A stretch of 60,497 nt of DNA, the filler included. It is 6 parts of 6 records of this genome, joined end to end, with 100 filler letters (N's around TTAATTAATTAA, not from the genome) between each part and the next. Parts side by side here need not be neighbours in the genome. Positions count along the whole stretch, not along the records: positions 1 to 29,346 come from SRR2962707_364; 5 more parts are not named here. The stretch is one strand, 5' to 3'. Position numbers and translations under genes: made by a program. Within the stretch, counting starts at the first letter, position 1; the number at the start of each line of letters is the position of its first letter. This document shows, piece by piece, positions 404 to 49,511 of this stretch. A model generated the notes under the pieces. The model saw nothing but the letters and a program-made list of their open reading frames with translations. It did not search any database and was not told the origin of the DNA.

Positions 404-3400
404 ATGGACCAGCGACCACCGTGGAGCCCTTCTTGGTCAGGAGGAACTCCCACCCCCCCAAGCGACAGTGACGAAGACAACTTGCTGCTTGACTCACCGG
501 CTGGGAGCGCGCAGCCTGCCCCTCAGAAGCTGTTGTCTCCAGAACCCTACCTCCGCCGCGGATCTGGCGAGCAGCGCCGCCTGGGACGCCTGTTCAACGA
601 CAGCCCGGCACGCTTTTCCCCAACCGGAAGTGGAAGTCCTGCTCGCAGCCCAATGCCAAGTACAGGAAGGATGCTGGCTAGCGGAAGCGGTGCGATGGAA
701 CAACAACGGCGACGTAGTGGTGGTGAGATTGGGTCACCAGTGTCCCCTGTGCCAATGCGTTCGTCGCCGGGAGGCCTGTCTTTGTCACCAGCAGAACCAT
801 CGGGTTCTGCGTCGGTCACCACGCCGCCTCGTAGCCGTCAGACACAACAGTTTTTTGCTGGCGTGCTACACTCGGCGAACCGCGCTGTGGAACTGTACAG
901 CAACCCTGAGAAAGCAGCCAAGGTTGAAGCTGCGCGGACCAAAAGGCTAAGGAGGCGTTCTTCGTCGCGGGGCCGGTCTGGTGGAGAAACTGTCAATTCC
1001 AGTTCATCGGTGACGTCGCCTGGTGGTGATTCGCTTGGACTAGCTCCCACGCACGAGCAAAGGTCAATGCAAGAATACATAAAAAAACTAGAGTCTCAAG
1101 TCGCAGAACAGCAAAGCGCTCTGGCCGAAATCGCGAAGGAGAAGGCAAGTGTGCAAAAGCAGCAACAAGCGGAACGCCAGTTGCATGGGGATGACGTGGG
1201 TCGTGGTGTCGATGCGCCTCCGCCACCACCCTCCCACACGAAAGAAGAAGAAGAAGAATTGCGCGATCTCGAGCGCCTCAAGGCCTTACAAATGGCCCGT
1301 CAACGGGCAGGGCGCGCACAGCCAGCGCCTCAGGCGCACGCCTCGCCCCCTCGGCCTTCGCAGCTTCGGATAACGACACCACCAAAGACACCCGTGGACG
1401 TTCTCAAGAAAAAGAAAAAGACACCGCAAAACATTGTGTTATCACCTGAGGCTGAGTCTTTCATTGGCGAGGTCAGTCAATGAAGTGTGTTTTTTCTGTT
1501 CGGTTGCAGGGAAGCTGCCCGCGGGCTTGGGGGTGTGCTGGCTACATTGCCTCGTGCCACATTCATGTTCCTTTCTCCGCTCTGTTTGGTATTTCTGAGC
1601 TTAAAGCTTGTTGATAAGTTGCTATTAATGATATGCTGGTTTTTGCGCAAAGGTGGTTCGAAAGAGTATCTCAGGACGATGGAAAAGCACTGTGAAGAAA
1701 GTCATGATGGCCGGTCGATTTCAAGGCCTTCTCAAAGCCGTGGGCTCTGCAGCGCGTAGTGGTGTTGAGGATAGTAGTGGAGAGGATGGCGCAAATCTTG
1801 GCAGCGATAGTCTTGGTGGTGTTGGTGCTACAATGCATCGACACACTACGAGCAGCACAGCAACTTCGCCAACTTCTGCAGGCAGTGGTGGCTCGTGGGG
1901 TTCCGATGGTACAGACGACATTAATATGGACGAGGTGCTCAAGCAGCTTGGGCTCGATGAGGACGACAGTGATGGAAGTGAAAGTGGTTCAACCACAGGG
2001 TCAAGTGGGGACTTATCTGCTAAACTGGCCAGCCTCGACAAGGCCGTAGCCCAGGCGGATGTTGAAGAGGACGCTGCCATTCTCAGTGCTGCAGCTGTGA
2101 GTCCTATTTATTATTACAATGATATGCTTGATGTTCGCCCACGAGCATATGCCTGCAGTCGAGGTTGTTAACGTGTTGTGTGCGGTTTTGTGTGTGCAGG
2201 CTGTGCTTGACGAAGGTGAGGCAGCCCTTCCAAATGAAGGGCAAACTCTCACTGTTCGACGTCCAAGCATCGAACCGGGCCACATCCTGCGGTTTGGGTT
2301 TGTAAAGCACATCGCAGCTGTGGTGTAAGAGTTTGCAGCGCCCCGAATATTTCGCCAATCTAAGTGTGTATGTGTGACTGCGCAGATCTGGTGATATCGA
2401 CACTCCAAGTGATGAATCGGATGAACCTCCAAGATCTCCCGATTCTGTCGAAACTCCGCCTTTGGATTCAGGTAATGAAAGTCCTGTCGCTGGACCTGGC
2501 GGGAGTAGTCCACACACACCACCGCCAGAAGGTGATGCTGACAGTGAAGGCATTAGGACTTCGAAACCCTCAATAGTCGAGGCTAAGCAAGATTTTGACA
2601 ACGAAGATGACGAAGAGTGGCGTCGACAGTTTTACAAAACCAAGTCCGACAATGTACCCCTGGTTTCAGAAGGTGCTCGCGCTTCCAATGCCACCAGTGG
2701 GGACGCAAATATGAGGGAGAGCGCCGCATTCGATCCGAATGAGAAAGTTTTACCCGCAATGCCGAAATCAAGCGGTGACAGTGACGACAGCACTAGCGCT
2801 GCTCTTGGGCCTGCTGTGAGGTCTGCAGACAGTCCGCGCGACGCAGTGTTGAACGCGGAAAAGTTTCCATCCTTGGACGAAGAGATTGACCAGCGTCGGG
2901 ATTTGCCGGCGGTTTCCTCAAAGGCATTCGTTCAGCAGCAGCTTTCTGATGTCACGTCAGATCCTGAGGGTGAAACCGTACGAAGCACCGACGGTTCCCA
3001 CCAAAAACAGCTTGAAGATGACGCAGCAGCTATTTCAGAACGTAATCCTGAAGAGTCGCCTACAGAAAGTACGGAAGGCCAAGCAACACTGTTCGAAGAC
3101 CAGGCAGCTACAGTAGCCACGGCGCCGACAGTAGCTTCTGCAAAAGTTGGATCAGACGTTGGTGCTGAAGCTGATGCTGCAGACCGAAGCAATGAAGGTA
3201 ATGCGGCCATGATTGTTCATGGCACTGCGGATAAAACGAACCTGAATTTATCTGCTGAACGGGGGACAATGCTCAAGTTTGACCTTCCTGCGCAAGAAAC
3301 AGTGACGCCCATGACACCTCGTGGCGGTGGACGCAGTCCAGATTCTCCGTCATTCGAGGACGAACGTGACGACGACGAAGAAGAACACATTGCGGCCTTG

Positions 3401-6400
3401 AGTTTGGACAGCGACGAGCATAGTCATGATGTTCTCGATGCGGCAACCGCCGCGGCAGAACAGGCTGCGGCAGATGCTGAGCGAGCTGTAGCGGCTGCAG
3501 AGTCAAGTGTCACCACAGAGCTAAGCCCTGATGGGGTCAATAGCACTCCTGCATCTGTTGCCGTGGTACAGAACGACATCCCAAGACATACTCAACAATC
3601 TCCTTCAGATGCTTCTGCGGATGTTGCACAAAATTTGATTGTTACTCCAGCAAACTCTGACGCAGCAGCTGTGAACACCGAAATTAGTGACAACAGTGTC
3701 AGAATTCGAGAACCGCTGCCTGATGTTGCGGGTAATGCGACTCTGCAAGTGTTGGGAGCAGACGACATAAGAGGGCAGTCTGACACAGTCAACGCTGTGG
3801 GTGATGCTGGCTCTGATGGCGATTTGCCGACTGAGCAGGGACAAAAAGCACATGCACAGCCTGAGGAACTGCCTTTGGCTGGCCTTTCTCCAAGTGAGGT
3901 TATGCCGTTGACCTTTGAAGCCAATTGTTTGATTAGTACGCCCCCTCCGCAGCGCAAGGAGGACGATGACGTGGACTTGGAAACAACACCACAAACACAG
4001 CATACCATGGTAACAGCCTCACCCAACGATACGTCCTCAATAATGGAAAGTGACCTCGATAGTACACGGCAGGACTCGCCAGCTAATGGTGATTCAATCG
4101 TTCAAAGCATTGCGCCACCAACCACAAAGAGCTCGGAAGTTCTGAGTCCTGGGGGTGACGAAGCCCAAGAAATGATCCGAGAGGTACTGGGCTCCGTCGA
4201 CAGCTTTGCTTCAAGTCGAGAGATTCATGCTAATGGTGTTCCAGGGAACACGCCCAAAAGTGGCGCTGTCGGTGGTTCCAGTAACACAGGCCGTGGAGGC
4301 TTTGGAGGGTCAGGTTTAGGGGACGACGAAAACAAGATCCAAGATGATGAAGAAAAATCTGCCGATGCGCCAACCCCGCCCCTAGACCCCGAAGCATTGG
4401 CTCAGGCGGCAAAAGCCGCTCGTAAAGCACGAGAAGACGCGTTTGTGGAGAGCTGTGCAGCGTTTGCAAAGTCAGTACTTTGCGCTCAACAATTGCTTGT
4501 GAAAAAACCTACTCACCGCGGTTCCACTTGCACACCCACGTGCCAATTGATCTGGTTGTCTGATTTTGCAGGTACCAAGCTTACCGTAATCTTGGAACAG
4601 CCGAAGGGCAACGCGAACTTCTTATGGACTACGCCGAGCTGCAACTCGACGACGATCCTTCTACTTCCGGTCTTGGACTGCAGATGGCCATTGGTCACGG
4701 CAAAACTGGTGGCGCTGAAGCTGTGGATAGTGCCAGCGGGCAAGGCGTTGAATCAATTGCTGTTGTTCGACCTGTATTCGACTCGGACCGTGTGTTTGCA
4801 TTATTCGATGTTGATCGTGACGGGATTCTTGACGTGAGCGATTTCAAGGAGATGCTCCGTGAGCTTGGGATTCATGCACCGCTGCCTCGCTTGATCAGTG
4901 CACTTTTAACGTTTGATGACGGAGCAAAAGGGTATGATGGGCCTGCTATTGTCGTTCTGAGCGCCCTTGTGGCGTCGCGGAAACTGAGAGCGAAATGTTC
5001 CTTGTGTGGCTTTTGTATGTGCATTTGTCGGTGTCGTAGGTACTTAACACGGGAAGAGTTTCGGAACTGGGCAGCTTCATCAGATCATGTTAGCCCTGCC
5101 GAAGCGGCTTGGGTACAGAAATTGCTGACGGAGGGGGACTTCTGGGGACATGCGTCCCGGCGTCGGGATGTTATCTTTCGAAGAGTGTCTGCTGCACGGA
5201 AGGCAGCAAAGTCCGACGTGCGCCGGCATAAACTCATTCATGGCTCTGCAGTGTGCGTTGGCTAGTTTACGGCTGAAAGCGTGAAGTGATTGAGGTAGAT
5301 AGTGTACATTGACTTACCCGCGAGCCGGGTACTCACTACATCGAATTTTGCTGCAGGTATAGCCGACGTGGTAGCGGCAACAGTGGAACCATGGGCAATT
5401 CATCCTCCACCGGGCTGGACACGTCTAAACACTTGTTTGCGGCTGACGTATGCAAAGCCCACATGGCAGACTTGGACGCCGTGCTCAGCTCAAAGGAGGG
5501 GCGAACAATTGTGGCGCAACAGGAGAAGGCTCAACACCTAAATTGGACTCAGTCATCGTCAACTGAATCTTCTGGCTCAAAGCACACGAAGAGTTCCCGA
5601 CGTGGGTCGCTTGGATCACCTCGCACGTCTGTTCCTACAGTCGAAGCATTTTTGCGTTTATTTGACGTTGACGGAAGCGGAGATCTGGACCCATGGGAGG
5701 TCGCGATGTTACTGGACGCAGTTGGTGTTATTCACAATGACCGTGACGTGATGAACTTATTCTTGGACAGCTCACTTTCACGGCCGTCGACTGTGTCGGA
5801 AAAAGAGTCAAATTCCCGAGGCGCTAGCTCAAGCCAAGCGAGTATTGTGGACACTGGCATCGGACCAGTGGTGCACACTTCGACGGGCGGCACGCCAGTG
5901 TTCCATATGCGACATGGTGCGCCTCAAATTTCATTGCGAGCTCTTCAGGAGGTTTTAATGACACCCGTAGATAAAACTAAGGGCTCCCCGCGGTCGCGCA
6001 TCCGCACGCGGTCGTCAAGCCTTGACCTCACCGGCTGCCCAGCACCCTTGGCCAGCACCGAAAATGCCTGGACGCGCAGCGATTTTGAGCAGCAGTTGGC
6101 ATACTCGTTTCAAAAGGCCTTTAAGGTTCTCAGCCACGACCGTCGCAAGCTTGGCATGGTGTGTGCTCGACAGGCTTTGGCTCGAGCAGTGATTGTACGT
6201 CATAAAGAATCGGCGGAAAGGGACTTCGTGCGCGCTCATACATTCGACGCCGAAAAGGCTCTGGCGGAGTTTGCATCATCAAGCGACCGACAACGCAACG
6301 CGCGGTTTGTGCGGCAGGCTGACAACCTCTGTGTGCTGACTTTTTTTTACGTGTGAAAACAATATCGTTGGATGTATTTATTGTTGACATGTCAGTTTGT

Positions 6401-9400
6401 GCGTAGGTACTACTGTGGTGCCGTTCCTGTGCCGGACTGCGTTGCACGGCTCGAAGCTGCACTTGCCGTGGCCCAGCAACAAAGTGCTCCAATCGATGAT
6501 GCTGACCATGCAAGTGCTCGCTGCAAAGGCGTACACCCGAAGGCTCGTGCAGCTGTGGTTGCCAGGGACATAACTCCATTTGATGACTTGCGTGGCTACT
6601 TGCAGAAAAAAAGTGCGTGTGACTGATTCGCGCTCAAGTTGCTTGTACATATCGTTCGCTTTAGTTGTGGGGCTTATGGTTTTACACTCACTCACGTGGC
6701 CTGTGCTGTCGACTCATTTTGCATACATGCATGACATACATACGACATACATGCACGATAAAAGGTTCAAGTGGAACATATCAACGGCGCTATTTTAGTG
6801 TGCGCAATGAGTTTGTGAACTACTACTCAAATCAGCATGACTTTGAGACAAAACCTGTCGAAAAGCTGTCTGGAACGTTCAATTTGCGCTCGTGCAGCCA
6901 CGTGGGTGACGGCGAAAATGACGACACCGGGTCTCAGACGGCGAGCCCAATTCTGCGGAAAAAATCCAAGTCACACGGCCGAAAAAAGAAGCCACGGATA
7001 GTTCTTTTTTTCCACGGCAACTTGGAGTGCCGATTGATGGCTGCTTCGCTCAAGGAAGCGGATCACTGGCGCAAGCAATTGCAAGATCGTGTCTTATGGT
7101 TCCGTGAAAAGCCTGCTGATGCTGAGCCAGAAGCAATCGCCCCAGTGTTAGAGTCGCCACGCGTTCGCCGTGCCCGGCGGGCGTCTATTGAAGCTGCCGC
7201 AGCAGAAGCCAAACGCAAGAGAGAGCAGGAGGAGGACGACGAAAAAGAACGGTGGGCGAAGGAACAAGAATCTTCTTCATCTCGTGCCGTTTCTTTATTG
7301 CATGCTGAACACTCGCCAGAAGAACTCCAAGCCCAAAAGGAGATAGATTTGGCCGTCCACGAGGAGCTTGCAGGACCAAAGCGCCAAGAAGGTGGCCACG
7401 ATGGCGTTCGAGCTGTCGGCGAAACCCCTGACCACACTGTCGGGAGTGAAGATGGCCAAGATAGTTTTGGTGCCAACGAGCGCTGTGTTGCGAATGACGA
7501 GGATTTAGTTTTACACCCAGCAGGACCTCAGCATGAAGCTGCCAACTTGGCTGGGGGCGAGATGTTGTCCCCTTCCGCTGCGGGTTTGACTGTCGCCAAA
7601 CACGTTGCCACAGAAAGTGCGGAAATTGCCACTTTTGCAACTCCTTCCCGCTTGCCGTCGGCAAAAGATACTGCACTTGCAACCCCATTACTGGACACCA
7701 GTGCCTGTACGGAGCTCACCCCCGAAGTGGAGGAAAAGCAGAACTTTCAGTTTACGCCTTCGCCGTACGACTCCCAGCAAACTCCTATGCAACTTTTCCG
7801 AGCTGGCAGCATGAAGTCTGTGCTTGAAGACCCGCAAGGTGCCACACTTTCTCAGTTGCTGCTTCCTTCGATAGGCACCGACAACGTGCACTTCTTAGGG
7901 ATCACTGAGGATGGCGATTGGTTTATGCGCTCCTATGCCACTCCCGGGCAACCGCGGCAACAGCGTGCTGGTTTGATCCAAACAGATTTTCTGGATGTGA
8001 CCTCAGGCCAGTCCGTTCTGGAGTGCCCACCAACACTTTCCGAATTCTTTGATAACCAGGTGTCGCAGCCAACGAAACTTGCTGTGCTTGAAGCAAAGGA
8101 ATTGCAACGTCGCTCAGAGGAGCTCGAGTACGTCCACAACCAGGTTGAAAAGGCATCGTCTGCGCTTCGGAAGGCGCTTGATTCTTCGCTGCAAGGCAAG
8201 CTAATTCTTATGCGCGAAGCAGTGCACCAATGCAAAATCCGGCGGTCTTTGCCCGCAGAAAGACAGTGGCTGGCGCGTGTACGCGCTGCTTTTGATCATT
8301 TTGACCGTCGCAATACAGGATCGGTCAATTTCGATCAATTCCTGAACGGTTTGCAGTTGGTTTCCAAAACTTTTGGAACAGCTCTCGAAGTTGATGGTGT
8401 TGACCTCCGTGTGGCGCGCACCGGACTACCATCTTCATCTGCGGGGCGATATTCTGACTCTCAGCTACGGAACATGCTTGTGCACTCCATTCGTGCCATG
8501 TCTGCAGTGGCTGTCAGCGCTCTGTTTCAGCACTTGGTGAATTTACCGAATACAGGGAGCTCCTTGTTCGCGGATGGTGGCCATGTTTCGGCTTCATTCA
8601 TCACGACAGCTTCTGCTGGCGAATTAAGCCGCATTCAATTTTGTCGATTTTTTGGTGGTCCCTGTCCGGCTTTACCTGCGGCCCGAGTGCTTTTTGATGA
8701 GACGCCCATGGACCTGAGCACTGCGGCCTTCACGGCGTGGGTGATGCTTCACCACTTTTTTGATCACCGCCAAGAGGCGGAACATATCAAGCAGCTTAAG
8801 GCTGAGGTCACTGATTTTCTGACCTCACAGGCAGTCGCTAATCTTGATGCGTCTGAAGAGGCTTTATTGCGGCCAGACGTTATGTCAAAAATTGAAGGTT
8901 GTGACATCTCAGTTGCGCGAAAGCAGGTTATTTTAGAAACTGAAGAGCGAATGCTCTTCACATCCATCGAAAGTTTTCGATTACGGCACCCAGTGTACTA
9001 TGTACACCCAATCGACAAAAGCACGCATGTCGAGGGTGCAAGCGATGTTGCACGCAATCAGGACCAAGTACGCGATGGTTCATCAAAACTCATCCAAACG
9101 CCTGCAAAACAACGTCGCCTGAGTCTACGCGGTGGCCGCTCAGATTCCTTGATCACTAATTCTGCCAAAGGACCAGTAGACTTTGCCTCGCTTGCATTGG
9201 GTTCATCGCCGCGAAACTCTGCGGATGCCTCAGGCCTGCAACGCCGCATGTCTTTCAGTCCCTCGCCCCGAGCATCGTCTGGCAATGATACTTTCCAGCG
9301 ACGGTTGAGTTCAAATAGTTTGACCATTGATGCTCAGGGAGGAACCTCTCCCGCTGGCACTCAACTTGTGTCAACAACGCTTCCGAGTGGACCGCGTAGC

Positions 9401-12400
9401 GGAAATGGAAGTGAAGTGCACGCATTCAGCTCAAGTGAAGCTTTATCAGTGGCGCAAACAAAGCAGGTGCTGCTTCTCAATACAAATGTGACGTCCCTAA
9501 AAAAAGAGCAAGGTTCAAAGTTAGTGCAGACGCTGCGAAAAAGTCTGTCTCCTCGTTCACGACACAGCAACACGAAGCTGCCGGCGTCGAAAGACAGCAC
9601 TGACCAGGGGGGCGGACGTTTTGCTGCCAGTGAGCCCGAGCCTTACCTTGTCGTGCGACGTTGTGTCCTAAATTCACCGACTTTGAATCGTTTTGGAAAG
9701 AGTGGCGAACTTCATGACGATAAAACTACTTGGCACTGGGAGGAAGTTGCCCGCACTTCCCGCCTCGATTCAGCTTCTCTAAGCGATGTAAGATCTTGGC
9801 GACCGCTGGCAATTCCGCTACAGTTGCTGCTGGGCTACCATGACGAGGTCATTGGACTTCCACAGCTTCAAGCTCTTGGACCCGTTCTGTCCGAGACTTT
9901 GTTGTCACTGGAACTTGAGGTGTTTGACGCACGCAATGACTGGTCAATTGGACACACTCGGCTTTCGCTTCTTGAGGTTTTGGGAGTGGAGGAAATGATT
10001 CTGCTTATGGCTGAGCATAAAGCGCAGACTCTGGAGCGCCTTGGCAAGCAAGTTGAAGCAACTGATTTGGTTGCCGAGCTTGTGTGCCAACTCATGCCTG
10101 AGGATGTGGACATTCGCCGCAACGTTCTATTTGAAACGGACTTACTCTCTCGGAAGAGGAACTCTGTTCACGGCGGTCTGTTCGGGTCGATGATGGTCGT
10201 GAAGGAAACGTCGGTGACGTCATCGAGAAGACGGCATATTGCCAACGTAAAGCGTCAGATTCGAACTTCAGTGAAAGAAAAACAAGCAGATCGTGAACGG
10301 CGCCAGCGTGAGGGAGAGTTGGCAGCAGTGTCTGCGGCTGCTGAGGAAACTACCGCTAAGCTCGAGGCTGCGGTGCAGCACAATAGTTCTGATGGCAGTG
10401 GGGACCAACGACTATCGAACGAGCTTCGCAATCACGACGAAGGCCAACGAGAACAGTCGCAAGGGTCTAGGAACTCAGTGGACAGCGAGTCTGTAAGTGC
10501 TGGATCTGGCTTTGATGACACGTCTGACGGTGAACCGGAGGAGACAGTCGAGGAGCTTCTTGAAAAGATTCGAGCTTCGATTCGAGCCGCACGGACAGCG
10601 GACGTGAATGTGGCGGAATTTGAACGTATTATTAATGAGCTAGCTGATGCCTATGAAATTACTGATGAATCTTCAGCTTCATTGCGCGAGACACGTTCGT
10701 TGCTGGAGGCGCGAAAGGCGGCCGACCACGCGTTGTCCGCTGCACTGGATAATTTGGTTGTTGCCATTGACGAATGCGCGGCTCGTCGCACGGCTGAGAG
10801 CGCAGCTCAAGTTGCTGCTGCAATCGCAGCGTTGCGAGATAAATCCAAAGAATCTGGAAGTGAGAATCTGCCAGCGGTTGACAGTATCGACACCGAATGG
10901 TATCGTTCGCGTTGTGCAACCACAATTGCTGATGCTGAAAGCCTTTTGAAGCAGGTTGCGATTGAAATCAAATCACGAGGTACTATTGCCCGCTTAGAAG
11001 AACTCCTTCACAACGCGGAGACACGCATTGCTACCGCTATTGCCTCCCAGAATTTCTTAGACGAGCGCGAGTGTGGAAATTGGATCGATCAAATCGCGAC
11101 GGCATCCCAGGCTGCCGGACAAGTCTCTGCTGTTGTGGACAATCTTGAAACGGCACGAAGAAGTGTTCCACTTGATGAATTACCATGCATTGCACGCGCT
11201 GAGAATTTGTTGGCGCAGTTCAATGCTTTCTTCCACTTTCAACGAGCTGCATCTGAGGTTTACAAAACGCTTGGTCTCATCGCAGCACATCCATTCGAAC
11301 TCTCTGTTGGAAGTGCAGCAATTAGAAACCTTGCAACAAAACTCCATGCCGTCGAGTCTTGCGCCACTGCGTGTTTATCGCTCGTGCAGCCTGCAGACTC
11401 ACGTCCGCTGCTGCCGAAAGCATGGCGAGGGGATGGTGCACGTGACGCGATCAATGGACCTCCGCCTGCTTCTGAATCCCTCTTGGGCCGGGCAATGTTG
11501 CAATTACGAGCTCGCAATGCTCTTGCCGGCGTGAACGCGGTTGTTGTTGCCCACCGAGTCAGAAGTCGTAGTGTGAGTCGTGACAACGCCGAAAACGAAG
11601 TGCTTTCGGATGGATCAAATGACATAACTTCGGTAAAGCCTGAGGACGCTGGGCTTGATTGCAGAGACGTTCACGATCTGGAACGTATGTTTGCCGCTGC
11701 CAATGACTTCCTCGCGCGCTTGTCTGCCGCTGCTCGGCGGCAGCGAAAGGTTGATACTGCCAACGGGGAATTATCTTCTGCATTGAAAGCGTTCTTGGAC
11801 GGGACCCAGGATATCGACGAATTTCGGATGGTCGTGAACCGTGTAGGTGCTTCGTCCGCAGGGCTTAGTGACTCAGCGCTCGACGACCTCGTCGAAGAAT
11901 GTCGGGAGCTGTTGATTGTGGAAAGTGGAGCCCAAGGCCTTGTGGACGCTACTGAAGCCCTCCAAAAGTTGATCGCACAGTGTCGCGAAAGTGAAGATAT
12001 TGTAGCACTTCGTGACGGTATGGCCGTTGCGCGTGCGGCCGCCACTGAGGCTACTAAAGCTGGCGCAGCCATCAGTGCCGCTCATGTGACTTTACTTGAA
12101 GACGCGCAGCGCTTGTTCGATGACCTGCGAGCTGCACAGGCGGACCGTGAACGGCTGGAGCGGGAGACAGTCAAAACCAGGAAAGCGCAGCAAGTGACGA
12201 TGCAACGAGCTGAAGCCGAAAAAATCAAGGCTGAAGAAATTGCTGCCCTTGACGATGCTGCACGCGAAGTTCTTGTTAAGTGTGTTGCGGATTCGCGCCA
12301 TGCACTGCTTGAAGTAGAACAGGAGTGCGATCGACTATGTGCGCTCATGGGCCAATCTGATGAGGTTGCTTCCACACGATGCCGCCTTACTGGCGCCGAC

Positions 12401-18400: not shown

Positions 18401-21400
18401 GTAGTTCGCGAAGTTGAGGAGAAGGCATCGGTCGAAATGCCATCTCTGGCTGTGGCGGCGCTTGAGGAAGCTTTAAGCTCAGCTCGAAAGCGTGGGCTTA
18501 AGGAACCAGACAAATTTGTCGAACAGGCTAATCAGCAGCTAAATCAGTGGCAAACGCGTGCTCAGGTGGTTGAGTTTATTGACCGTGTGTCAATGGGGAT
18601 TGCATCATTTCAAGCAGCTATTCGTGAAAGAGCACTTAGCATGCACCAAAGCGACGAGTCGACATCGTCCGTGCGAGATGATTCGTTTCAGATGCCAACT
18701 GATGCAGTTTCCTCAGCGACGGCTGCGGATGTGTTTGAGCTGATCTCTACGATAACACCTGCTGAGCGGGCAGCCCAAGAGTTGGCTGACGCGACTTTGG
18801 ATGAACTGCTTACCGAGGCTCGATCTCTGGTTCGTGCTGCTCAAGCTGGGCAAGAGCGCGCAGACGTAGAATCTGCTTTGGCGGAGGCAGTTGCGCGGTG
18901 CCGGCGTACTCGTGAACCACAGAGCTTGCAGCCTGCCATTGCACGAGCCGAAGCGTATCGAGGAGCAGGCAATCGTCAAAGCGATGGGTCTTCGTCGTCG
19001 TCCCGAATGGAAAACCTGCTTGACGAAGCGCACACACTGCTCCAAGAGCTTCACCAAGAGCAACGCCGCGGTGAGGCACTCGCCAATACACAAGATGCTC
19101 TTGCTCAAGCGCAGTTATTGCTGGCCGCAGACGCTGTCAGGCGCGATGATATAGTACTCGTGCAGGGGCGACTGTCACTCGCCACAGCTGATTCACTGTC
19201 CCTTGGCATTGGCGAGACGCACCCGGTGTTAGCGCGTTCCCTTGCCGCGGTTCGCAATCTCGATGTCATGGCTGCAAGAATGCCATTGCAAGATTGCATT
19301 TCTGTGGTGCAGGCACGATTAGAGGGCAGGCACGAGTGGGCTCTCGCACAAATGGCTGATTTAGGGCTCTTGGATGATTTGAGCGGCGCAAGTGGCTTGG
19401 GGGAACGGCCTGGAATGCCAACAGGTCACGATAAAATCGGCAGTGCCGAATCATCTTTCTCTGTTACAGGGGCACTTGTCCCCGTGGAGCCTGTCGTACA
19501 CTCGGTTGTACGCGATGAGCAGGAAACTATTGATGCTCAATCCATTGACCTTCTCCAAAAAGAAATGGCGGCAGCAAGGAGACATGGACTGTCCTGTGGT
19601 GACGTCGTGTTTGACGAGGCACAGCGACTGCTGTCAAGGTTGAATCAACGTTGCTTTGCGCGTGAGGCCGTTGCAGATGTTCGTGGAGCTGTTCAGGCGT
19701 TTACTGATGGGTCACTAGACCTGGTAGGTTTGATGTCTCGCGTGGCAGCGGTCGAGACTCGCTTCACTGCCACCGAACCGTCGGAGGGATGCACGTTTCC
19801 AATTTTGGAAGCAGCACTTGACGAAGCCCGGGGACTGATTGTGGTGTGTTAAAAGGCAGATTCATTCATGTCCGACATTTTGAAATTTCGGCTTTTTTAT
19901 GGTTGCATGTGCGTCCACGCGAAGGTCAATGTGTATGTGCTGTACTGCTTTACTGCAGGACGAACAGCATCGACGACAGGTTGCTGCCGCACGTGTTCAT
20001 CTTCAAGGTTGCATCTCACGTTGCCGCCGTGACCGTGATACAGTGGCTCTGGAAAAAGTGATTGCTGAGTTGGAGAAACACCCGAACAGCCTCCTCTGTA
20101 GCCAGCCTCGGGGTTCTGTTTCTATGTCAAGCGACGTGGAGCATTTGGTTCAACAGGAATGCGAAGATCTGATTGAAGATGCGCGTTTGCTTATCTCAGA
20201 GATCCGTCGTAATGATGCTCAGACTGCTGTGCTGAACCGGCTTGCTGCGCTCGTAAGCACCGCAGCGGCACTGACCGAAGCAGGCCCCCCGCAAGCTCTC
20301 GGGAACGAGGATGACGTTGCAACGCAACGTCAAATCGATCTGGTCTTGCAAGACATTCAAGAGGGCCTACGTGATGCTGAAACAGTTGAGCTCGATTCGA
20401 GTCTCCCTGTGCGTATCTGTGCTTTGTCAATGCAATTGGCATCTTGCCTTCGTGGAGTGCTTGTGTGATTTATTTGCGTCACCGAAAAAAAAGGCCTAAA
20501 CTCATCAATTGACATGGGATGTAGGTGCTCTCGCTGAAAATTCCGGAGGTGCAAAACGGCTTGTCGGTGCTTCGTGCAGAACTTGACTTGCGTCAGGAGG
20601 TTCACGCTGCATATCTGCAGCACAATGAGGAGAAGCTTGGAGCAGCAATTACCGCTGCAGTCAATGCTGGTGTAGACCCTGAACACTCTGTTGTGCTGCA
20701 AAGAGGGCTGAATTTGCAACAACAATATGCACGGGAGAGCACTGTGCGGCAGCATGTTGCTCGCTTGGAAGCGGCAACCAATGATTTCTTGGATAGCAGC
20801 AATGCTGACATCGAGGATGACCAGAAAAATCAGTCGACGGATTTGCTCTCTGAATTTGCTGCTGTTGTACAAGATGTTGGCGATCTTGCTCAAGCCGATG
20901 GTTCACTTGATGATAATTTTCTTGCGCAGCTGCTTGGGCATTGTCGTGAGTTAGTGGCCGCTGAGGAGGCCCGGCGTGGATTGGATCGTGTGCGTGCAGA
21001 CTTTACCAAAAAAATTGGTGAACTTGAAACTCAGAGCGACTTTGAAGGAATTGAGTCAGCTGTTGAGGCAGCTGAATCATCTGCGGATGCGGCAGGCTTT
21101 CGTGATCTCATTATCCGGGCTAAGCGCACTGCTCGTGCTCTTCGCGGAGCGGACCAACTCTTGCACATGATTGCAAAAATTGATGATATCGCCGCAGCGA
21201 TACCAGACTTGACTGATGCCACCAGCTTGCGCACTCGCCGAGAGTCGCTTGAAGGCTATGCTGACGCGGCGTCAGATCTTGGATTGCCCCATGATCATGA
21301 GCTTGTGAAGCGCATCCGTGTAGCGGTCGAAATCTGTGACGGACGATTGCAGCATGTACTTGCAGCACAAGCACTTGGAAGAGCTGTTGAACTTGCTGAA

Positions 21401-24400
21401 AATACAAGGAACGCGGATGAGCTTCATAGAGCAGTGTTGGTTGCACGTGAATATCTAAGTGAAGGGGACCCTCAACTGAATCTTGCGTTGAATCTCTTGG
21501 CTGAGCTTCGCGACGAGCCGGCAGTTGCAGAACTCGTGAACCGCCTTCGCAGCCACATAGATGATATTGATGAATTGGAGAAAGTCATTGGCGAATTCGA
21601 AGGGGAGAAAGGTGCGGCTGACATTTCTGTGTTGTCTGTTGTGCAGTCGGTGCTCTTGCCGAAGGTTGTTGCGCATACTCACGCTTAATACAATGTTTCC
21701 TTGTAGGTGGGAGTGCCAGACGTGCCAGCGTGCTGCAGGAAGCCAAATCGCTTGTTGCAACTCAGCGCAAGCGCCAGCGCGTGTCTGTGACGGGATCGGA
21801 GTTCTTGTCCGCCATCAGGCAGGCTCATGACGCGGCCTCGCGAGCCAATCTTCTTGCGGCTTCAACAGTGCTGCCGACGGCACCAGATGCATCGCTTCAG
21901 TTAGTCGCGGACCTAAAGGTTGGTGTGCTGTTTGTGGTTTATTGAGTAGTGTTTGGAATCGACCCTCCGTGCAATTACAGATATTTTTTTGGCGATTCAG
22001 GCTGCGCAGGAACGGTTGCTTCTCCTTCGCGACAAGACACCAGAACAAGATGCTGCTGCTTTACCATCTGATCTAGTGGGTGTTGAAACTACTGAGGCTC
22101 TGGAAGCACTCAACCGTGCTCTTCGCATTGCAGCGTCTGTGGGGCATCTCCATCGGTTCGTACGTCTGGCTTTTGGTTCACAACGGTTGAAAAGAGTTTT
22201 GGTAGGTCTCGCGTTCCATTTTTTTGCTCATTTGATGACACCTGACCGTTTCAAATAGATACATTGCATCACTGTACGAGCCTGGAGGTGCCGCTGATGA
22301 ATATTCTACTGCCACTGACACGGCGATAGAAGAGCTTCCACGGCGATTGACAGCTGCAGCTGCCGCCATGTCTGACAGCGGCATGGCCGAAGACTTTTTG
22401 ATATCAGAACACAGCAGAGACTCTTCCAACTCCGACCGTAGGCCCTTCGAAAGCAGCCTTGTTCACACCCCAAACACAAAAGAACGTGTGAGCAGGCGGG
22501 CACAAACAACTCTGGCAATTTTCGATGCAGGAAATCAGGCTCTAAAGCAAATGCACAGACTTCAGCAACTTGCCCGCGCGACGCTAGACTTACGAAAAAC
22601 CCTCGACGATGCGACCAGTGCTCGTGATGGTGGCAACGTTCCACTTGCAATCAAGATTCTGCGCCAATGCATCGATGATTGCGCTTCGCTGGGCCTTGTA
22701 GACGAGAGCGCTGACCAAGCGGGGAGCGATTTTGTTTCCACAAGTGATGCATACCGCTTGTTTTCACTCGCAATGCAATTGTGTGCAGAGCTAGAAGATA
22801 GCTTGGAGGTGGATCGAGTTGTTTTGCGACTTCGCGAAGCAGCACGTGATTTTCAGGTGACAATATGCCACTGACACTGCAAAAAGTTTTGCCTGTTACT
22901 GTTTGTCAGTTGTCAAAGATTCGTGCTGGTGTCTTTGTAGGCTGGACTGCTCTCTCCACAAGAGTTAAAGCAGTTGGTTGAGTCAGTCGATTCTCAATTC
23001 GGTGGAACTGAGCGAGCGCGCCTACGACCACGCGTACAAGCAGCACTTGACGTTGTGGGAAGCATTCAACGTGAGCGTGCCGTTCAGGACGAACGCGATA
23101 CTGTGTTGAAATCTTTGTCTCAATGTCGTAGTGAGCGAGATGAGCCTTCAGTGCGGGCGTTGCAGGCCTGCATTGCTAATTTGAGTGCAGGTGCTGCCGA
23201 TCTGTGCCGTGCGCGAGGCGATCTTCGCGAAGCACAAAGTTTAATTGCATCAGTGGATCGTGAGCTGAAGGTTTGGTCAGCCTTGCACTTACTTCGTGGT
23301 GATGAACTTACTTGTGCACATTTGCTGAGCTTGCCACTGTGCACCTGTCTCTGCGCAACAAAGGTTGGGGAGGCACTGCAATCGTTTGCCACGGACATTT
23401 CACCAGAGACGTCACCCATTGGACAGAGCTCTAACCTTCAAGACAGCATCTTTGAGCAGACCTTGGCAGTCTCGGCCTTTCGAAACGATCAATCGACACA
23501 ACTTAGCATTGGACCTGGTTTCAACAGTGATCAACGGCAATCCGACGCGCGCAGGAACGCTACTAGTCAAACAAAATCGCGTTTAGCACAAGAGTTTTTG
23601 GGCCAGTTGGAGGTCGTGTACAAAAATTCTGTTCGCGATGGTGTTTTTTCTGATCTTACCATTATGTTGGAAAAGGCAAGTGAAGTGCTCCTTCGTGTTT
23701 TGTGGTTGCTGCACAAAGCAACGTTCGTGTTAATTTTTACTCTGTGTTTGTGTGGCGTTTTGCGTCCGTTAGGCACGCGCGCTAGGCTTGAGTGCACAAG
23801 AACACCCGCTAATTGCTCAGTCTTTGAACTTGGTCGCAAACTTGGATCGCATTCCAACGCCGCGCCCAGTTGATGATACTCCCTCTGGAAAAGCGCCGAA
23901 TTTGTGGCTTGATAAGCGAGGTATGCGTACAGACGTTCCCGGCGCAGTGCAAGGAAATGTGGCAGTGACACCCATTCCACGCACCGCTAAGCATGCTGTT
24001 CAAGTGGCAGTTGTGGTGCGAGGCTCTCGCCATGTTCTTTTGCTTCCAGTTCCTGCATCAAATGTGACCCGCTTTGAATCGCAAAATAAAGGAGCGGATT
24101 TGCGCAATGCAGTGGCTGAATTTTGTGCGCAGCACCGACTCAATCACAGAGATGCACATGCGCTCAGGACTTACATTCAGGAACTTGTTTTGGGTGGCCA
24201 CGCAATGTCGCCATTGCATCTAAATGGCAGTCTCGGTAGCGAAGGTGAACAGTCAACGCGCAGCCCTCTCGTGGGAGGCACCAGTTCGTTGGTATCTTCA
24301 CCACCCCGCCCACTCCCTGCGCCAACCGCGCAGCCACACCCGCTTCCATCGTCGACAACGTCACCAGGAATTTATGATTGCGGCTCACCCTTGAACCTTC

Positions 24401-27400
24401 ACAGTAGTGAAGATGGCCAGTCACGGAACCCATGGCTCCACGAGCGACAGCTTTCGTCCGTGGAGCATGGCCAAACCGCAGAGCGGAAACCAAAGCAGCG
24501 CCGATCAGTTCAACCTGTGACGTATGCAGAGTTGTTTGCTTCGAAACAAAGACATGGACGCCGCCCAACAAGCCTGCAAAAAAAGCAACAAGCGCATAGC
24601 GGCAGCTACAGGGTCGATAGTTTGCCTGCCAAGCGTTCCCAGGTCGGAGTGACCCCTGCATGGGATCGTGTATCGATAGCAGATGAAGTTTGGGCGCCAC
24701 AAACACCTTTTTCAACCGCATCACCAATTACAGCCTGGCCATCGTTCGAGGATGCTGCACGAGGCCAAAAGAGAGAGAGAGTACGGAAAGGTTCTCAGAA
24801 ATCAAAAAAGACACCGGCGTCATCGATCCACACGAGCCTTTATGAACGCGGCATGAGAGAGAGGCTTGAGAAAGCCGAACGCCACGAAAGACTTCGCCGC
24901 CAGCAAGAAGAGGCGGCGTTAGCGCAGGTCACTGGCAAGCCAGTGCTCAACCCGCACTCTCGCCAGCTTGCTGCCTCAGCTCCCAGTCTTCTCGCAAGGT
25001 TGGAGGCCAAGCAGACATCAGACAACGGCAAAAATGCAGATTCACACCAACAGAATGCATCCTCGCCCCTGAGTTCTGCGGAGCTCGAGAAATTACCTCA
25101 CGAAGAGCGCGAATTGCGCAAACATTGCACGTTTACCCCAATGTTAGCCGACGGAACACACAGAATTTTGCACGGCCAACATGTCCCTCCGGAACGTGCA
25201 AGTGAGGAAGAGAGCGATGACAGCGTTGACGGAGAAGACTTTCGCAGTGCCCGCGATAGGCATCTTCGCCGGCAGCGAAGAGCGGCTGCTCGTGTTCACC
25301 GACGTGAACAGCAAGCGCAAGACCAGCAGCGAGCATCGAAACTTTCATCTGTGAAAGCTGGCGCTCGCCTGTACAAAGAAGCAGAAGCTCGAGACCAACG
25401 ATTGCAGCAACTCAAGCAAAAAGCTAAAGCAAAGGCTCAGTTACAGTTTCCTTTCACTCCAGACCTAAGTGACACAGTACGTTTTATCCACGCACTTGTT
25501 CAACGCACGGTACTTGTCCAACGCATGTTGACAATCTTTGCTGGATCCAAAAGTCGTTGTTTTGCCGTTTCATGCAGGCACACAAGGCTTCGCAGCTTTC
25601 GAAAAAACGGGGAACTAGCTCAAGCGGGGCGAACTTGTCTTCGATCGATTGGGCAAGTGTTTCCAAGTTGGAGGATCCTTCGTCAGTTCTTCAACCTTTG
25701 TCTGATTCTGGAGCGTCTGAAGTGATGAATGCACCCTTGGTGCAGGATCAGACGGGCAATAGCAACAATGACCGTTTCACGCAATTGTACCGCCGAGGGC
25801 TCGAACAGCAAGCTCGACAGCGTGCAGCGGTGCAGAAAGCGCAGGAGTTGTCTGGTCTTGACCCTGCAACAGGTGCGCTCTCAAATGCTCGTGATAATCC
25901 GTCTGTCGGTTGAATGTTTTGGTTTGTGTTGAAATGTCGTTTGATCGGCCAGGTCGCCCGCTTTTCACTCCTCGCGTTGGTCGCGAGCCTGCTTTCGACC
26001 GACGAGAGCGAATGGCTGGGCTTGATGTGGGTAGCTACTTGTACGTTTTGCATGTTCGAAATCAATGAGTACGCGTTGATGAAGTTTCAGGCGTTTGCTA
26101 CCGATAAACATAGCTGTTCGAATGTAATTGCTGTGCGGTACAATACTTTGAATGCAATTGCCTAGGTATGCCGGGAGACACCTCAAGTCCGACTTGGAGA
26201 ACGCAGATCGCCAGCTCGCTGCTGCCACTGGTAAGCCGCAATTCCAGAGCAGTGCTAATGATATCTCGATCGCGGACGGATCGAAGTCCGCTGAAGTCAC
26301 CTCCCCTCACAACCAAAGCAGTCATCAACCAGAGCGCCATCTTTCAACTGCCAAAGAACAACTTACTGCCGGATCGCTCTTCAGATATTTGGCTTACGCA
26401 GAACAACGATACAGGAATGAATTTGCACCCCTGAAGGATGGTGGCGGTAGTGGTGCCAAGAACAACGGTAGCAATTCCACTGGGAGTGAAAATACGATTC
26501 ATGATTTGAAATTTGTCTGTGACAACTTTGGTGAAGTTGCTGGTCCGCAACTTGCGCGGCTCGTGAGGTCACTAGTTCAAGAGATGGCAGCTGTTTTGGA
26601 GTGTGATGCCGCCGTTGCGGCTGCCACCGCAGAAGTAGACGATGAAACGAGTGGTGGAGACGGGAAGAAACTCATCTCAACTGGTCCCACCAACGCGGAT
26701 GCCTTCGTCGAGGTCCTTGAAGCGGCTCTCAGCCGTGCGAAACGTCGCAGTGGCCGCATGCCAACGCAGGCACTCTTTCCTGCTCGAGAGATTGCTTCAT
26801 ATCTTGAAAGCGCGAGGAGTTTTCAAACGAAACAACAACATCCTACCTTTGGCGAACTTAAAGAACATAGTCGACCTTCACGCAAAGCGCATTTCAACGA
26901 AATGTACGAAAGTGCGCAACAAGCCAAAGCTCGACTTACAGAGCTCAGGGAAGCGACAATGGCAGCAGAATCGGTATGTGTGCTTGCTTGTTTTTTGTTT
27001 GTTAATTCCTTTTGTACCGCCTGTTTCTTATCACCAACTTGCTTGTGCGTGCTGTGATCAAAGGCAAAACTGACGTTTCAACCGAAGCCGGCTGTGCCCG
27101 CAGAGCGAACAAAAGCACTGCTAGAGAAAAGTGAGCGCAAGCGACGATTGAGGGAGCACCAGCGCAAACAGCAAGCTCAATTGCAGCTTGAGAAGCCTTC
27201 CCCGTCTGACACTTTGGAGAACCGCACCATCTCTAAGCTGTCCGCTCGTGATCGTGCACGCATCGAGTTAGCGCGGGCACTTCAGCATTCTCACTCTGAA
27301 CAAGAGCGCCGCGAAGCTCTGCTCGGGAACCAGGGTGTGTCGAATTCCGATACAGGTAAAGAATTGACACCCCGCGGGGTGGCTCGGGCAAAACTCACCA

Positions 27401-27432
27401 GTGTCATGAGGAACGCTCCTCACCGTCAATAA
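404..27432 (+). CDS. Giant multi-exon gene (~26 introns, roughly 8,000 aa): disordered N-terminus, EF-hands, PH, C2-like, long helical super-repeat array, C-terminal xTFxP repeats; probable cytoskeletal/ciliary scaffold
   Basis: Consecutive + strand ORFs join in phase through GT-AG introns, e.g. 1472-1652, 2097-2199, 2292-2385, 4471-4571, 4932-5039, 5253-5356, 6305-6406, 6613-6764, 12778-12876, 14380-14533, 15841-15937, 18119-18214, 23271-23363, 26974-27063. ATG at 404 (MDQRPPW), TAA at 27430-27432. Splicing restores intact EF-hand and PH motifs across junctions. Confidence 0.75.
4800..5070 (+). other. EF-hand pair within the giant protein
   Basis: FDVDRDGILDVSDF and, after removing intron 4932-5039, FDDGAKGYLTREEF. 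Further EF-like loops at ~5660 (FDVDGSGDLDPWEV) and ~8300 (FDRRNTGSVNFDQF). Confidence 0.8.
6585..7100 (+). other. PH domain within the giant protein
   Basis: Spliced sequence LRGYLQKKSSSGTYQRRYFSVRNEFVNYYSN...GTFNLRSC...CRLMAASLKEADHWRKQL has the PH beta1/beta2 pattern and the C-terminal helix Trp. Confidence 0.85.
9630..9990 (+). other. Copine-like C2 domain (degenerate) within the giant protein
   Basis: EPYLVVRR...WEEVARTS...WRPLAIPLQLL...LELEVFDARNDWSIGHTRLSLLEVL resembles the copine C2 pattern (DPYL / V.RTE / W..F.IP...L / IEV.D....IG). Confidence 0.6.
10540..23850 (+). repeat. Protein-level tandem array of ~12-13 degenerate ~300-aa alpha-helical super-repeats
   Basis: Recurring anchors such as AFLDGTQDIDEF (~11790), MYSKGATDFISLVSCVAHVESQGL (~14840), RFASAELDLFRFMSEIARVESQDL (~15750), FHESGATDYLQLLSCVAHIESQAL (~16650) and AFTDGSLDLVGLMSRVAAVE (~19700), plus A..GL...D/H..V..A..L motifs, spaced ~0.9-1.2 kb. 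Confidence 0.75.
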
Positions 27433-27658
27433 CTTCTTGTATGAGGCGGTGGTGTCATGAACGTGCGACATCTTACATCAGAAGATATAAAATTATGAAT
27501 TTTACAGAAACATACAACTCTCTGCATTTGATGGGATCATGGACTCCGGGTGCGCACCTCCACGTTCACAATGGACGGGTCGCCAATTGTCCGTCAGTGT
27601 TGCTTCGGTTTGACGAGCTTGAGTCTTTGATCCTGTTCCGTCGCGGATGCTTGTGGTG

Positions 27659-29180: not shown

Positions 29181-29346
29181 TTCACTGAAGCGATTTCGAA
29201 ACGATGACCAACAACACCAAAGGAAAGTCTGAACAAAGACACGCGTTCAGCAGCCAGGCCCGATTCAATAAAAAGCGCTTCCACCCACAATGCCCGTTCT
29301 CATCGACCGACGTCGTCACACAGACACACAGACACACAGACACACA

Positions 29347-29446
29347 NNNNNNNNNNNNNNNNNNNNNNNNNNNNNNNNNNNNNNNNNNNNTTAATTAATT
29401 AANNNNNNNNNNNNNNNNNNNNNNNNNNNNNNNNNNNNNNNNNNNN
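29347..29446. other. Artificial contig spacer
   Basis: 44 N + TTAATTAATTAA (stops in all six frames) + 44 N; flanked by CA-rich and CT-rich simple repeats. Confidence 0.98.
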
Positions 29447-35589: not shown

Positions 35590-35949
35590 TTGCAAACGAC
35601 TTGTGCTTGACTTCGTCACCTTGGCATCGAAACAACTATCACCAGCCCAACTACGCCCCGTAGCTCCGCACCTCAGCACCCACCCGTCGCATGCACGCAC
35701 CAGCAACGAAAATAATGCCCACGAAAATCAGAACCCAGCAACAGCGAGAGAGCTCAAGAGAGACAGACAGACAGAGCTCCAGAGACAACGTGGAAACTCA
35801 ATCAGATCCGCAACGACGAACACACAATCCCGATGAAAATTGATGCGGTGGCAATAACACTCTCCCCTCTTCACACGCACCACTCGTCGTGGCTCACACC
35901 ACATGCACACACCTTCCGACACACCACTCACTCACTCACTCACTCACGA

Positions 35950-36049
35950 NNNNNNNNNNNNNNNNNNNNNNNNNNNNNNNNNNNNNNNNNNNNTTAATTA
36001 ATTAANNNNNNNNNNNNNNNNNNNNNNNNNNNNNNNNNNNNNNNNNNNN
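35950..36049. other. Artificial contig spacer
   Basis: N44-TTAATTAATTAA-N44. Confidence 0.98.
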
Positions 36050-44136: not shown

Positions 44137-44236
44137 NNNNNNNNNNNNNNNNNNNNNNNNNNNNNNNNNNNNNNNNNNNNTTAATTAATTAANNNNNNNN
44201 NNNNNNNNNNNNNNNNNNNNNNNNNNNNNNNNNNNN
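44137..44236. other. Artificial contig spacer
   Basis: N44-TTAATTAATTAA-N44. Confidence 0.98.
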
Positions 44237-49411: not shown

Positions 49412-49511
49412 NNNNNNNNNNNNNNNNNNNNNNNNNNNNNNNNNNNNNNNNNNNNTTAATTAATTAANNNNNNNNNNNNNNNNNNNNNNNNNNNNNNNNN
49501 NNNNNNNNNNN
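49412..49511. other. Artificial contig spacer
   Basis: N44-TTAATTAATTAA-N44. Confidence 0.98.

Follow-up and report, generated by a model that had tools for sequence, protein, structure and literature searches.

The window analysed here is a stretch of 60,497 nucleotides (nt) made of six joined contigs, and its first contig (1-29346, GC 0.524) is taken up nearly entirely by one giant gene. It has been largely shown that 404-27432 of the plus strand is a single protein-coding gene with 27 exons, which is transcribed and spliced and encodes about 8,100 amino acids (aa). The source of this 29.3-kb contig is an uncultured marine eukaryote, a protist. The spliced product (8,100 aa, 874 kDa, pI 5.4) consists, in this order, of an acidic head, a pair of EF-hands (EF1 and EF2), a third EF loop (EF3), a PH domain, a fourth, EF-like helix-loop-helix (EF4), a conserved segment, 13 helical repeats, a candidate small domain and a basic tail. 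A single gene for a giant rod-like scaffold is the best explanation of these observations as a whole, and we regard it as likely.

The gene appears on the plus strand between 284 and 27432 as a chain of open reading frames (ORFs) of 399, 179, 819, 233, 347, 2,572, 469, 278, 253, 732 and further codons, separated by gaps of about 100 nt each. The original prediction had read more than 20 such ORFs as exons spliced in phase into one gene of about 27 kb and about 8,000 aa. Both statements stand: 26 short canonical introns join the frames into one coding sequence, and the resulting frame-consistent model of 27 exons agrees with joints in RNA and with a collinear relative. The introns measure 61-181 nt (mean 105), 25 of them with GT-AG ends and one with GC-AG ends, and coding sequence makes up 90% of the span. 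The coding sequence of 24,303 nt has no internal stop and comprises 8,100 codons followed by TAA at 27430-27432. The model was built with a simple exon-chaining program and was then curated by hand with learned splice-site matrices. A codon model was trained on exons 9-17 only, with exons 1-8 and 18-27 outside the training set. By this measure the modelled frame is the best one in all 27 exons (0.09-0.66 bits/codon), only exon 25 has a further frame that is not negative, and the introns average -0.07. RNA and the relative together support 21 of the 26 junctions.

RNA evidence came from one public run (X1), in which 39% of the sampled words of 14400-24300 are present. RNA contigs were compared over 8000-27999, where 26 records were found, all at least 99% identical to the window. 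Nine plus-strand joints, in contigs 100% identical to the window, match modelled introns exactly: 12777/12877, 18118/18215, 21611/21707, 23270/23364, 23675/23773, 25476/25578, 25872/25953, 26040/26166 and 26973/27064. Eight of the nine have GT..AG ends; the ninth, 23675/23773, is listed as AG..TT with five ambiguous letters and becomes GC..AG when shifted by two. A tenth junction, 22155/22259, is deduced from a contig that begins at 22258 and carries nine loose letters; these, followed by the next base, are identical to the final ten bases of exon 19. Thus, spliced RNA, which had been proposed as a check across all junctions, shows ten of the 26 as joints. No contig that spans more than three junctions is among the eight pieces listed of the 36 placed. 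Three of 30 bins have no RNA cover, which is uninformative.

Independent evidence for the middle of the gene comes from its relatives. A search with the 1,199 aa that follow the PH beta1 strand against 1.84 billion representative proteins gave eight matches at E <= 0.001. The first long relative, P0001 (2,033 aa), is 79.7% identical over aa 1834-3820 and ends precisely where exon 9 does. The second, P0002 (4,236 aa), spans exons 6-15 and is collinear with aa 1358-1948 (55% identity) and 2104-5964 (38%). L001, a 15.4-kb contig from a seawater metagenome (GC 0.524), has P0002 as its main ORF and as a whole is collinear with aa 1229-1955, 2104-5964 and 5973-6475. Thus, 5,250 middle codons are collinear with one gene in the relative. 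The alignments pass without insertion over introns 4, 5, 6, 7, 8, 9, 10, 11, 13, 14 and 16, and intron 12 is crossed with a 9-aa gap; two of these 12 crossed junctions (introns 4-14 and 16) are also among the ten seen in RNA. Ahead of the EF module, L001 has an open, acidic frame that runs from its contig start. Its gene has two introns (L001 960-1100 and 13640-13830) versus 13 in the window's gene over the same stretch. One of them interrupts the EF2 loop at the codon for the first Gly of GAKG and so lies three codons (about 10 nt) upstream of intron 5, and the other has the same position and phase 0 as intron 15 of the window. The difference could be due to intron loss or gain, with possible intron sliding.

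The exons, all on the plus strand, are supported as follows. Exon 1 (404..1471, aa 1-356) begins at the first ATG of the ORF 284-1480. Its codon bias is the lowest of all (0.089 bits/codon), yet it is best in the modelled frame, and its donor at 1471 and the acceptor at 1653 form the top in-frame splice pair. Exon 2 (1653..2096, codon bias 0.399) was also placed by the best in-frame splice pairs, with neither RNA nor homologue support for these two exons. Exon 3 (2200..2324, codon bias 0.444) has an ambiguous 3' end at 2291 or 2324, a difference of 11 aa; the pair 2291->2386 scores 3.8 versus 0.8 for 2324->2386. Exon 4 (2386..4470) is acidic and probably disordered, and L001 reads CATFAKYQAYRH straight over its junction with exon 5. 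Exon 5 (4572..4931) carries EF1 and the first half of the EF2 loop, with Pfam EF-hand matches, and exon 6 (5040..5252) carries the second half of EF2. P0002 aligns over both junctions that flank exon 7 (5357..6304), which contains the EF3 loop at 5664-5699, and it is continuous over 6304/6407 and 6612/6765 at the two ends of exon 8 (6407..6612), which ends in the PH beta1 strand GYLQKK. The long exon 9 (6765..12777) encodes the rest of the PH domain, the EF4-like site, the conserved orphan domain, repeats R1-R2 and the start of R3. It is based on Pfam matches to PH and EF-hand_6, on the end of P0001 and on the donor 12777 in RNA.

Further downstream, P0002 is continuous over both ends of exon 10 (12877..14379), whose acceptor is joined to 12777 in RNA, and over both junctions of exon 11 (14534..15840) and exon 12 (15938..16739). 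It is also continuous through exon 13 (16846..17572), with the 9-aa gap just past the 16739/16846 junction, and through exon 14 (17654..18118), whose donor appears in RNA. Exon 15 (18215..19843) is fixed by the RNA joint at its start and by the homologous phase 0 intron of L001 at 19843/19959. Exon 16 (19959..20408) falls in the stretch where a frame-3 ORF of L001 is collinear with aa 5973-6475 at 44% identity, and L001 is continuous over 20408/20525 into exon 17 (20525..21611), whose donor is present in RNA. The RNA contig with the joint to exon 18 (21707..21918) continues to 21895, and the donor 21918 was chosen as the best in-frame pair only (score 5.4). Exon 19 (22001..22155) is identified at its 3' end by the loose letters described above, and exon 20 (22259..22856) by an RNA contig covering 22258-22758, while the junction of intron 20 is not seen in RNA. 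For this intron the donor 22841 has a higher position-weight-matrix score and was rejected; it deletes a conserved repeat motif, and 22856 was preferred because it keeps the motif. Exon 21 (22941..23270) has its donor in RNA, exon 22 (23364..23675) has RNA joints at both ends, the second being the GC-AG intron, and exon 23 (23773..25476) is based on an unbroken RNA contig at 23907-24842. Exon 23 contains the candidate alpha/beta domain (23971-24228) and the motifs CTFTP (25126-25140) and FPFTP (25447-25461). RNA joints flank exon 24 (25578..25872), exon 25 (25953..26040, with PLFTP at 25958-25972) and exon 26 (26166..26973) on both sides. Exon 27 (27064..27432), with LTFQP at 27070-27084 and the terminal TAA, is covered by an RNA contig at 27063-27477 that runs past the stop.

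Some features of automatic models were rejected during curation, namely a start at ATG 1067 and a skip of the PH beta1 exon (6299->7055). An automatic intron 24244/24291-24860/24928 is contradicted by the unbroken RNA contig 23907-24842, and automatic models that lack the intron 18118/18215 are contradicted by the RNA joint. The acceptors of the gene have a pattern of their own. In 15 of the 18 best supported, the first exon base is G (AG|G); several of those verified are rich in purines (AAAG|G) and lack a pyrimidine tract. This is unusual for 3' splice sites and could aid gene prediction in the source organism. Spliced minus-strand RNA was also found in 27343-27999, with a joint 27705/27851 (CT..AC) and a depth of 45-95. 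It converges on the 3' end of the giant gene and marks a neighbouring transcription unit. No convincing ORF was seen in 27433-29346, and this minus-strand RNA may be non-coding or encode a small protein.

The presence of EF-hand and PH modules, which the original prediction had proposed, is confirmed at the level of sequence. Pfam was run on the ORFs of the window and on P0001-P0004. EF1, whose canonical loop DVDRDGILDVSD lies at 4807-4842 (plus strand), scores 31.5 bits for EF-hand_6 (PF13405, cut-off 25) and 29.3 bits for EF-hand_1 (PF00036, cut-off 25.4). A canonical loop has 12 residues, with acidic or oxygen ligands in positions 1, 3, 5 and 12, Gly in position 6 and a hydrophobic residue in position 8; EF1 and the EF3 loop DVDGSGDLDPWE conform to this pattern, and EF2 (DDGAKGYLTREE) and EF4 (DRRNTGSVNFDQ) do not. 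EF3 scores 15.9 bits for EF-hand_6, below the cut-off, and the EF4-like site (aa 2326-2351) gives 18.3 bits in the window, also below it, and 28.3 bits in P0002, above it. The relative keeps the acidic ligand positions of EF1 (DVDRDGIMDVSD) and EF3 (DIDASGAFDPWE). Two junctions had been thought to rebuild a canonical EF loop and a PH beta1-beta2 motif. The first, 4931->5040, is right as a junction, because the spliced FDDGAKG|YLTREEF is conserved as FDDGAKGFLTRDEF in the relative. The EF2 loop that it creates departs from the canonical form, with G in position 3 and K in position 5.

The second of these junctions, 6612->6765, does restore the PH motif. The PH domain (aa 1808-1935, 6585..7120, plus strand) is cut by intron 8 (6613-6764), so that exon 8 ends in RGYLQKK and exon 9 starts with SSGTYQRRYF. 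Exon 9 alone matches profile positions 14-102 of PH (PF00169) with 19.2 bits, below the cut-off of 25.1, because beta1 lies on exon 8. In P0002 an unbroken ORF reads GYLQKKNSTGVYQRRYF, with the same spacing GYLQKK-x3-G-x-YQRRYF as in the window, and there the match covers positions 4-103 with 31.3 bits, above the cut-off. The domain has basic residues in beta1 (KK) and beta2 (RR), which are not diagnostic of phosphoinositide binding.

The body of the protein is a rod of 13 tandem helical super-repeats (aa 3071-6985, 10526..23591, plus strand), which were defined by an iterated hidden Markov model (HMM) and BLASTP. The units, R1 to R13, start at 10526, 11606, 12593, 13571, 14652, 15570, 16483, 17483, 18431, 19520, 20600, 21389 and 22662. 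They are about 285 aa long each and together account for 422 kDa. The HMM was seeded with two units and then iterated. Several units were found at E 1e-11 to 2.5e-16 when they were still outside the model; later scores are inflated because the units were by then part of it. Chunked BLASTP between units gave 24-37% identity at E 5e-15 to 5e-5. An AlphaFold2 (AF2) model of R5, made from an alignment of 13 exon-contained pieces, is all-alpha, with a mean predicted local distance difference test score (pLDDT) of 82.8 and a predicted template modelling score of 0.60. It has seven helices of 14-59 residues per unit, the long ones being 34-59 residues, and these form antiparallel bundles, not one continuous coiled coil. 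The predicted stretch of about 4,000 aa of helical repeats is thus borne out by about 3,900 aa in 13 units. The repeat unit is without a detectable relative in Pfam or the PDB: Pfam gave no repeat match, and the repeat profile matched no PDB sequence. In a Foldseek search of the PDB with the R5 model the best E-values were 0.48 for the HIP1R THATCH domain, 0.92 for talin R13, about 1 for the Munc13 MUN domain and 1.2 for plectin spectrin repeats, with TM-scores of 0.2-0.3. The repeats correspond one-to-one to those of the relative at about 38% identity, and paralogous units within the protein are 22-37% identical. Since orthologous repeats are more alike than most paralogous ones, the array is old and stable in repeat number, as expected if array length matters.

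Between the EF4-like site and the rod lies the best-conserved segment of the protein (aa 2771-2990, about 220 aa, 9626..10285, plus strand), which is 90% identical in P0001, 69% in P0002 and 66% in L001. It had been taken for a copine-like C2 domain, an assignment that the searches do not bear out. Pfam finds no match for the segment in the window or in four relatives, and C2 (PF00168) has no match at E <= 0.1 in the window ORFs or in P0001, P0002, P0003 and P0004. The AF2 model, with four strands and helices, has a pLDDT of 51.9, and a fold search with this low-confidence model, which is uninformative, gave no C2 domain among the 50 matches listed and none of these at E <= 0.001. In the Atlas all scores are at most 0.83, and faint, sub-threshold leads (0.80-0.82) point to C2 and RPGR1_C clusters. 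The C2 identity of aa 2771-2990 is therefore possible but unconfirmed. The small alpha/beta domain, at about aa 7080-7165, is a candidate with a best Atlas score of 0.81 and no family.

The two ends of the protein differ in composition. The head (aa 1-1240) has 12.6% Ser, 8.3% Pro and 16% Asp plus Glu with a pI of 4.57, and is probably disordered. The tail (aa 7171-8100, 24244..27429, plus strand) is basic and of low complexity, with a pI of 9.86 and a net charge of +33. It contains four motifs of the hTFxP type, hydrophobic-T/P/L-F-x-P (CTFTP, FPFTP, PLFTP and LTFQP), each following a charged helical stretch, and the last 640 aa hold five of the nine F-x-P triplets of the whole protein (post hoc binomial p = 3e-4). 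Of the xTFxP repeats described earlier these four short motifs remain, and they do not form a repeat domain. No family, structure or paper that ties the hTFxP motif to microtubules was found in Pfam, the PDB or the literature. The spliced protein has no transmembrane segment and no match to the Sfi1-type motif [FWL]xxW[KR], and contains 33 Trp in 8,100 aa.

The family to which the protein belongs is small in current data. None of the eight matches mentioned above has an informative name, and at most six are plausible family members, two long ones and four fragments. Among the short fragment matches, P0003, P0004 and P0008 fall in aa 2771-2990 and P0006 in aa 2203-2268. Among proteins of near length, exon 23 matches only the window's own protein, a 600-aa entry in the database, and no homologue of the 2,572-aa ORF was found among proteins of 4,502-5,000 aa. 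Scans of genome contigs with exon 26 and with the aa 2771-2990 segment gave no relative. In PDB sequence searches with exon 23, exon 26 and aa 2196-3016, only one match, to an EF-hand protein (3cs1, E 0.0021), was better than E 0.01. No account of this architecture or of the TFxP motif was found in the literature, supplementary files being outside the scope of that search. The earlier view that no described protein has this combination of parts agrees with both results. The best reading is that the family is undescribed, very narrowly distributed in current data and lineage-restricted.

Several known systems resemble the protein in layout. Spectrins and spectraplakins are rods of tandem helical-bundle repeats with EF-hands, and beta-spectrin also has a PH domain. 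The protein shares with alpha- and beta-spectrin and with MACF1, dystonin and Shot a giant modular rod of helical repeats with EF-hands, with beta-spectrin also the PH domain, and distinct end modules suited to linking a membrane to a polymer. However, its unit of about 285 aa has seven helices, whereas a spectrin repeat has about 106 aa and three helices, and its EF and PH modules precede the rod instead of following it. Pfam finds no Spectrin (PF00435), CH, plakin or GAR match in the window protein or its relatives, and the plectin spectrin repeats rank only 15th in the fold search. The talin rod also consists of 13 bundles. Talin and the HIP1R THATCH domain are the best structural neighbours of R5, at non-significant E-values (talin R4 2.1, in addition to those given above), but with TM-scores of 0.23-0.25 and no match at E <= 0.001; FERM, I/LWEQ and vinculin-binding families are not detected by Pfam in the window protein. 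PLC-delta type enzymes have a signalling architecture of PH, EF-hand and C2. The likeness lies in the PH and EF-hand modules, extending to C2 only if the earlier assignment were right, but the window protein lacks a PI-PLC X/Y or C2 match and its domain order is different.

Among protists, the GSBP1 and GSBP2 proteins of Spirostomum are 13,125 and 17,974 aa long and have 184-267 Trp-centred 23-aa motifs at 69-aa spacing (PMC9946354). As described there, they are intron-free backbones of the Sfi1-like, spasmin-binding type and bind separate EF-hand proteins (PMC9946354). The window protein is like them in being a protist-specific, largely helical giant tied to calcium and EF-hand biology, whose full transcript is hard to recover. 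It differs in its 26 introns, its own EF-hands and the lack of Sfi1-type motifs. FAZ10 of trypanosomes is a high-molecular-mass cytoskeletal protein (PMC5358337), and is comparable, by description only, as a giant lineage-restricted cytoskeleton-associated scaffold in a flagellate. In layout the window protein is like spectrin, spectraplakin and talin, and by every membership test run it is a member of none of them.

From this anatomy the protein would be a rod-shaped scaffold with a calcium- and lipid-sensing end and a basic end. In the proposed mechanism, the PH domain and EF-hands would attach one end, in a calcium-dependent manner, to a membrane or a patch of phosphoinositides, the helical-bundle repeats would act as a long spacer on the order of 100 nm (an estimate from helix lengths alone), and the basic tail might bind an acidic partner, e.g., a cytoskeletal polymer. 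The idea of a tether or ruler fits the anatomy because of the acidic head, the EF and PH modules, the long rod and the basic tail of pI 9.9. As a whole, the role of a scaffold or linker between a membrane and an acidic partner is put forward tentatively. A link to microtubules and a place in a flagellar root or feeding apparatus, both suggested earlier, gain no support from any of the tests and are guesses. A bolder version would make the protein the founding member of an undescribed family of molecular rulers of about 0.9 MDa, with a calcium- and phosphoinositide-gated head of three to four EF-hands and PH that docks on a membrane, a fixed array of thirteen copies of a new repeat spanning about 100 nm, a polymer-gripping hTFxP tail and aa 2771-2990 as a new core domain; taken as a whole, this version is unlikely.

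Several observations weigh against the reading of the span as a single giant rod-scaffold gene. The run X1 is labelled only 'RNA? (a guess)', its contigs over the giant gene are short and of low depth (1-7), and no one transcript or contig spans the gene. P0002 and L001 are one witness, because the former is the main ORF of the latter, and homologue evidence is missing for the first 1,015 and the last 1,625 aa. Introns 1, 2, 3, 18 and 20 were placed by splice-site and codon-bias logic only, without RNA or homologue support. Two RNA-proven introns (99 and 96 nt) sit in phase inside long open frames and the program found one of them; because it missed the in-frame intron 18118/18215, further hidden introns may exist and the protein length is approximate. 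In the Foldseek search of the PDB, R5 has no neighbour that reaches E <= 0.001. Because the contig begins at window position 1, ATG 404 is a provisional start codon, and upstream exons are possible. It could be, then, that the gene is truncated at its 5' end by the contig boundary, with ATG 404 internal and a protein longer than 8,100 aa. Position 1 indeed lies in a (TC)n microsatellite, like other contig ends, the open frame starts ahead of the ATG, at 284, and TTTTCAG near 352 resembles an acceptor. However, neither a coding signal (best frame -0.11 bits/codon) nor a long ORF is present in 1-403, which fits a promoter and 5' untranslated region (UTR), and truncation seems improbable. If the span were instead two or more genes, with for example exons 1-3 as an upstream gene for a disordered protein or exons 19-27 as a downstream gene, a model made to look for in-phase joins would have produced spurious ones at the unsupported junctions. 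The five introns just named, which come from splice-site scores and frame, the weakest codon bias in exon 1 and the lack of a homologue for exon 23 are in line with this. Short intergenic gaps are also possible because the genome is compact, the far more abundant convergent minus-strand RNA starting within about 300 nt of the stop. However, the gaps at the unsupported junctions are 61-181 nt, the same size as proven introns and hardly long enough for a 3' UTR, a promoter and a 5' UTR, and each has a canonical frame-keeping GT..AG pair. RNA links exons 17-18, 19-20 and 21 through 27, so that any downstream break would have to fall exactly at 18/19 or 20/21, inside R12 and R13, and the acidic open frame of the relative continues upstream of the EF module to the contig end. 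A division into separate genes is considered very unlikely.

If the single gene is accepted, its product may still have a role other than that of a scaffold between a membrane and an acidic partner. Myonemes of ciliates offer one parallel, in which the protein could be the backbone of a calcium-driven fibre that is contractile or elastic. It could also be a long coiled tether of vesicles or organelles. Its own EF-hands, its very long helical body and a size comparable with that of GSBP1 and GSBP2 (PMC9946354) would suit a fibre, but it has no Sfi1-type motif and 33 Trp, against the 184-267 Trp-centred motifs reported there for the GSBPs. For a tether, a transmembrane segment or known tether domain is missing, and AF2 gives antiparallel helix bundles instead of a single continuous coiled coil. 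Either role is quite unlikely.

The remainder of the window holds other contigs, which end in microsatellites and are joined by five identical 100-nt spacers of the form [44 N]TTAATTAATTAA[44 N] (29347-29446, 35950-36049, 44137-44236, 49412-49511 and 55057-55156), with stops in all six frames. Neighbourhood across a spacer therefore carries no meaning, and the proteins of the window itself are found on records of different length (1,716,269 and 802,047 nt). The source looks like a binned or concatenated assembly from an uncultured eukaryote that includes one mis-binned bacterial contig. The contig at 36050-44136 is bacterial, with a GC content of 0.572 and intact genes for Rho, uroporphyrinogen decarboxylase, ferrochelatase, Maf and a Zn-dependent dehydrogenase by Pfam; genes like a PEP-synthase regulator and Ogt are apparent there from ORF reading only. 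Mis-binning is the most likely explanation of this contig, ahead of gene transfer. In the other contigs, minus-strand ORFs at 46878-47498, 48091-48999, 34969-35727 and 54051-54872 encode a calpain fragment, an EF-hand protein, an ATG27-like protein and a 3-hydroxyisobutyrate-dehydrogenase-like protein. The nearest named relatives of the last, a EukProt transcript 'Hpha' and nemertean proteins, are 50-54% identical, and the source organism therefore has no close named relative in the database searched. No Rfam family reaches its gathering score in the whole window.

Giant proteins such as titin, spectrin, talin, the ciliate GSBPs and the trypanosome FAZ proteins determine how large cell structures are and how they behave mechanically. 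To our knowledge, nearly all known giant scaffolds come from a few model lineages. Here, an uncultured marine protist builds an 874-kDa rod from a repeat unit for which Pfam and the PDB show no relative and couples it to familiar modules of the calcium and lipid type. Giant modular scaffolds of the cytoskeleton that carry EF and PH modules are familiar as a general kind; the family is undescribed, and no relative of the repeat unit is detectable. Automated ORF calling splits such genes into many orphan ORFs, as with the 600-aa entry for exon 23, and the giant proteins of environmental eukaryotes are therefore systematically hidden.

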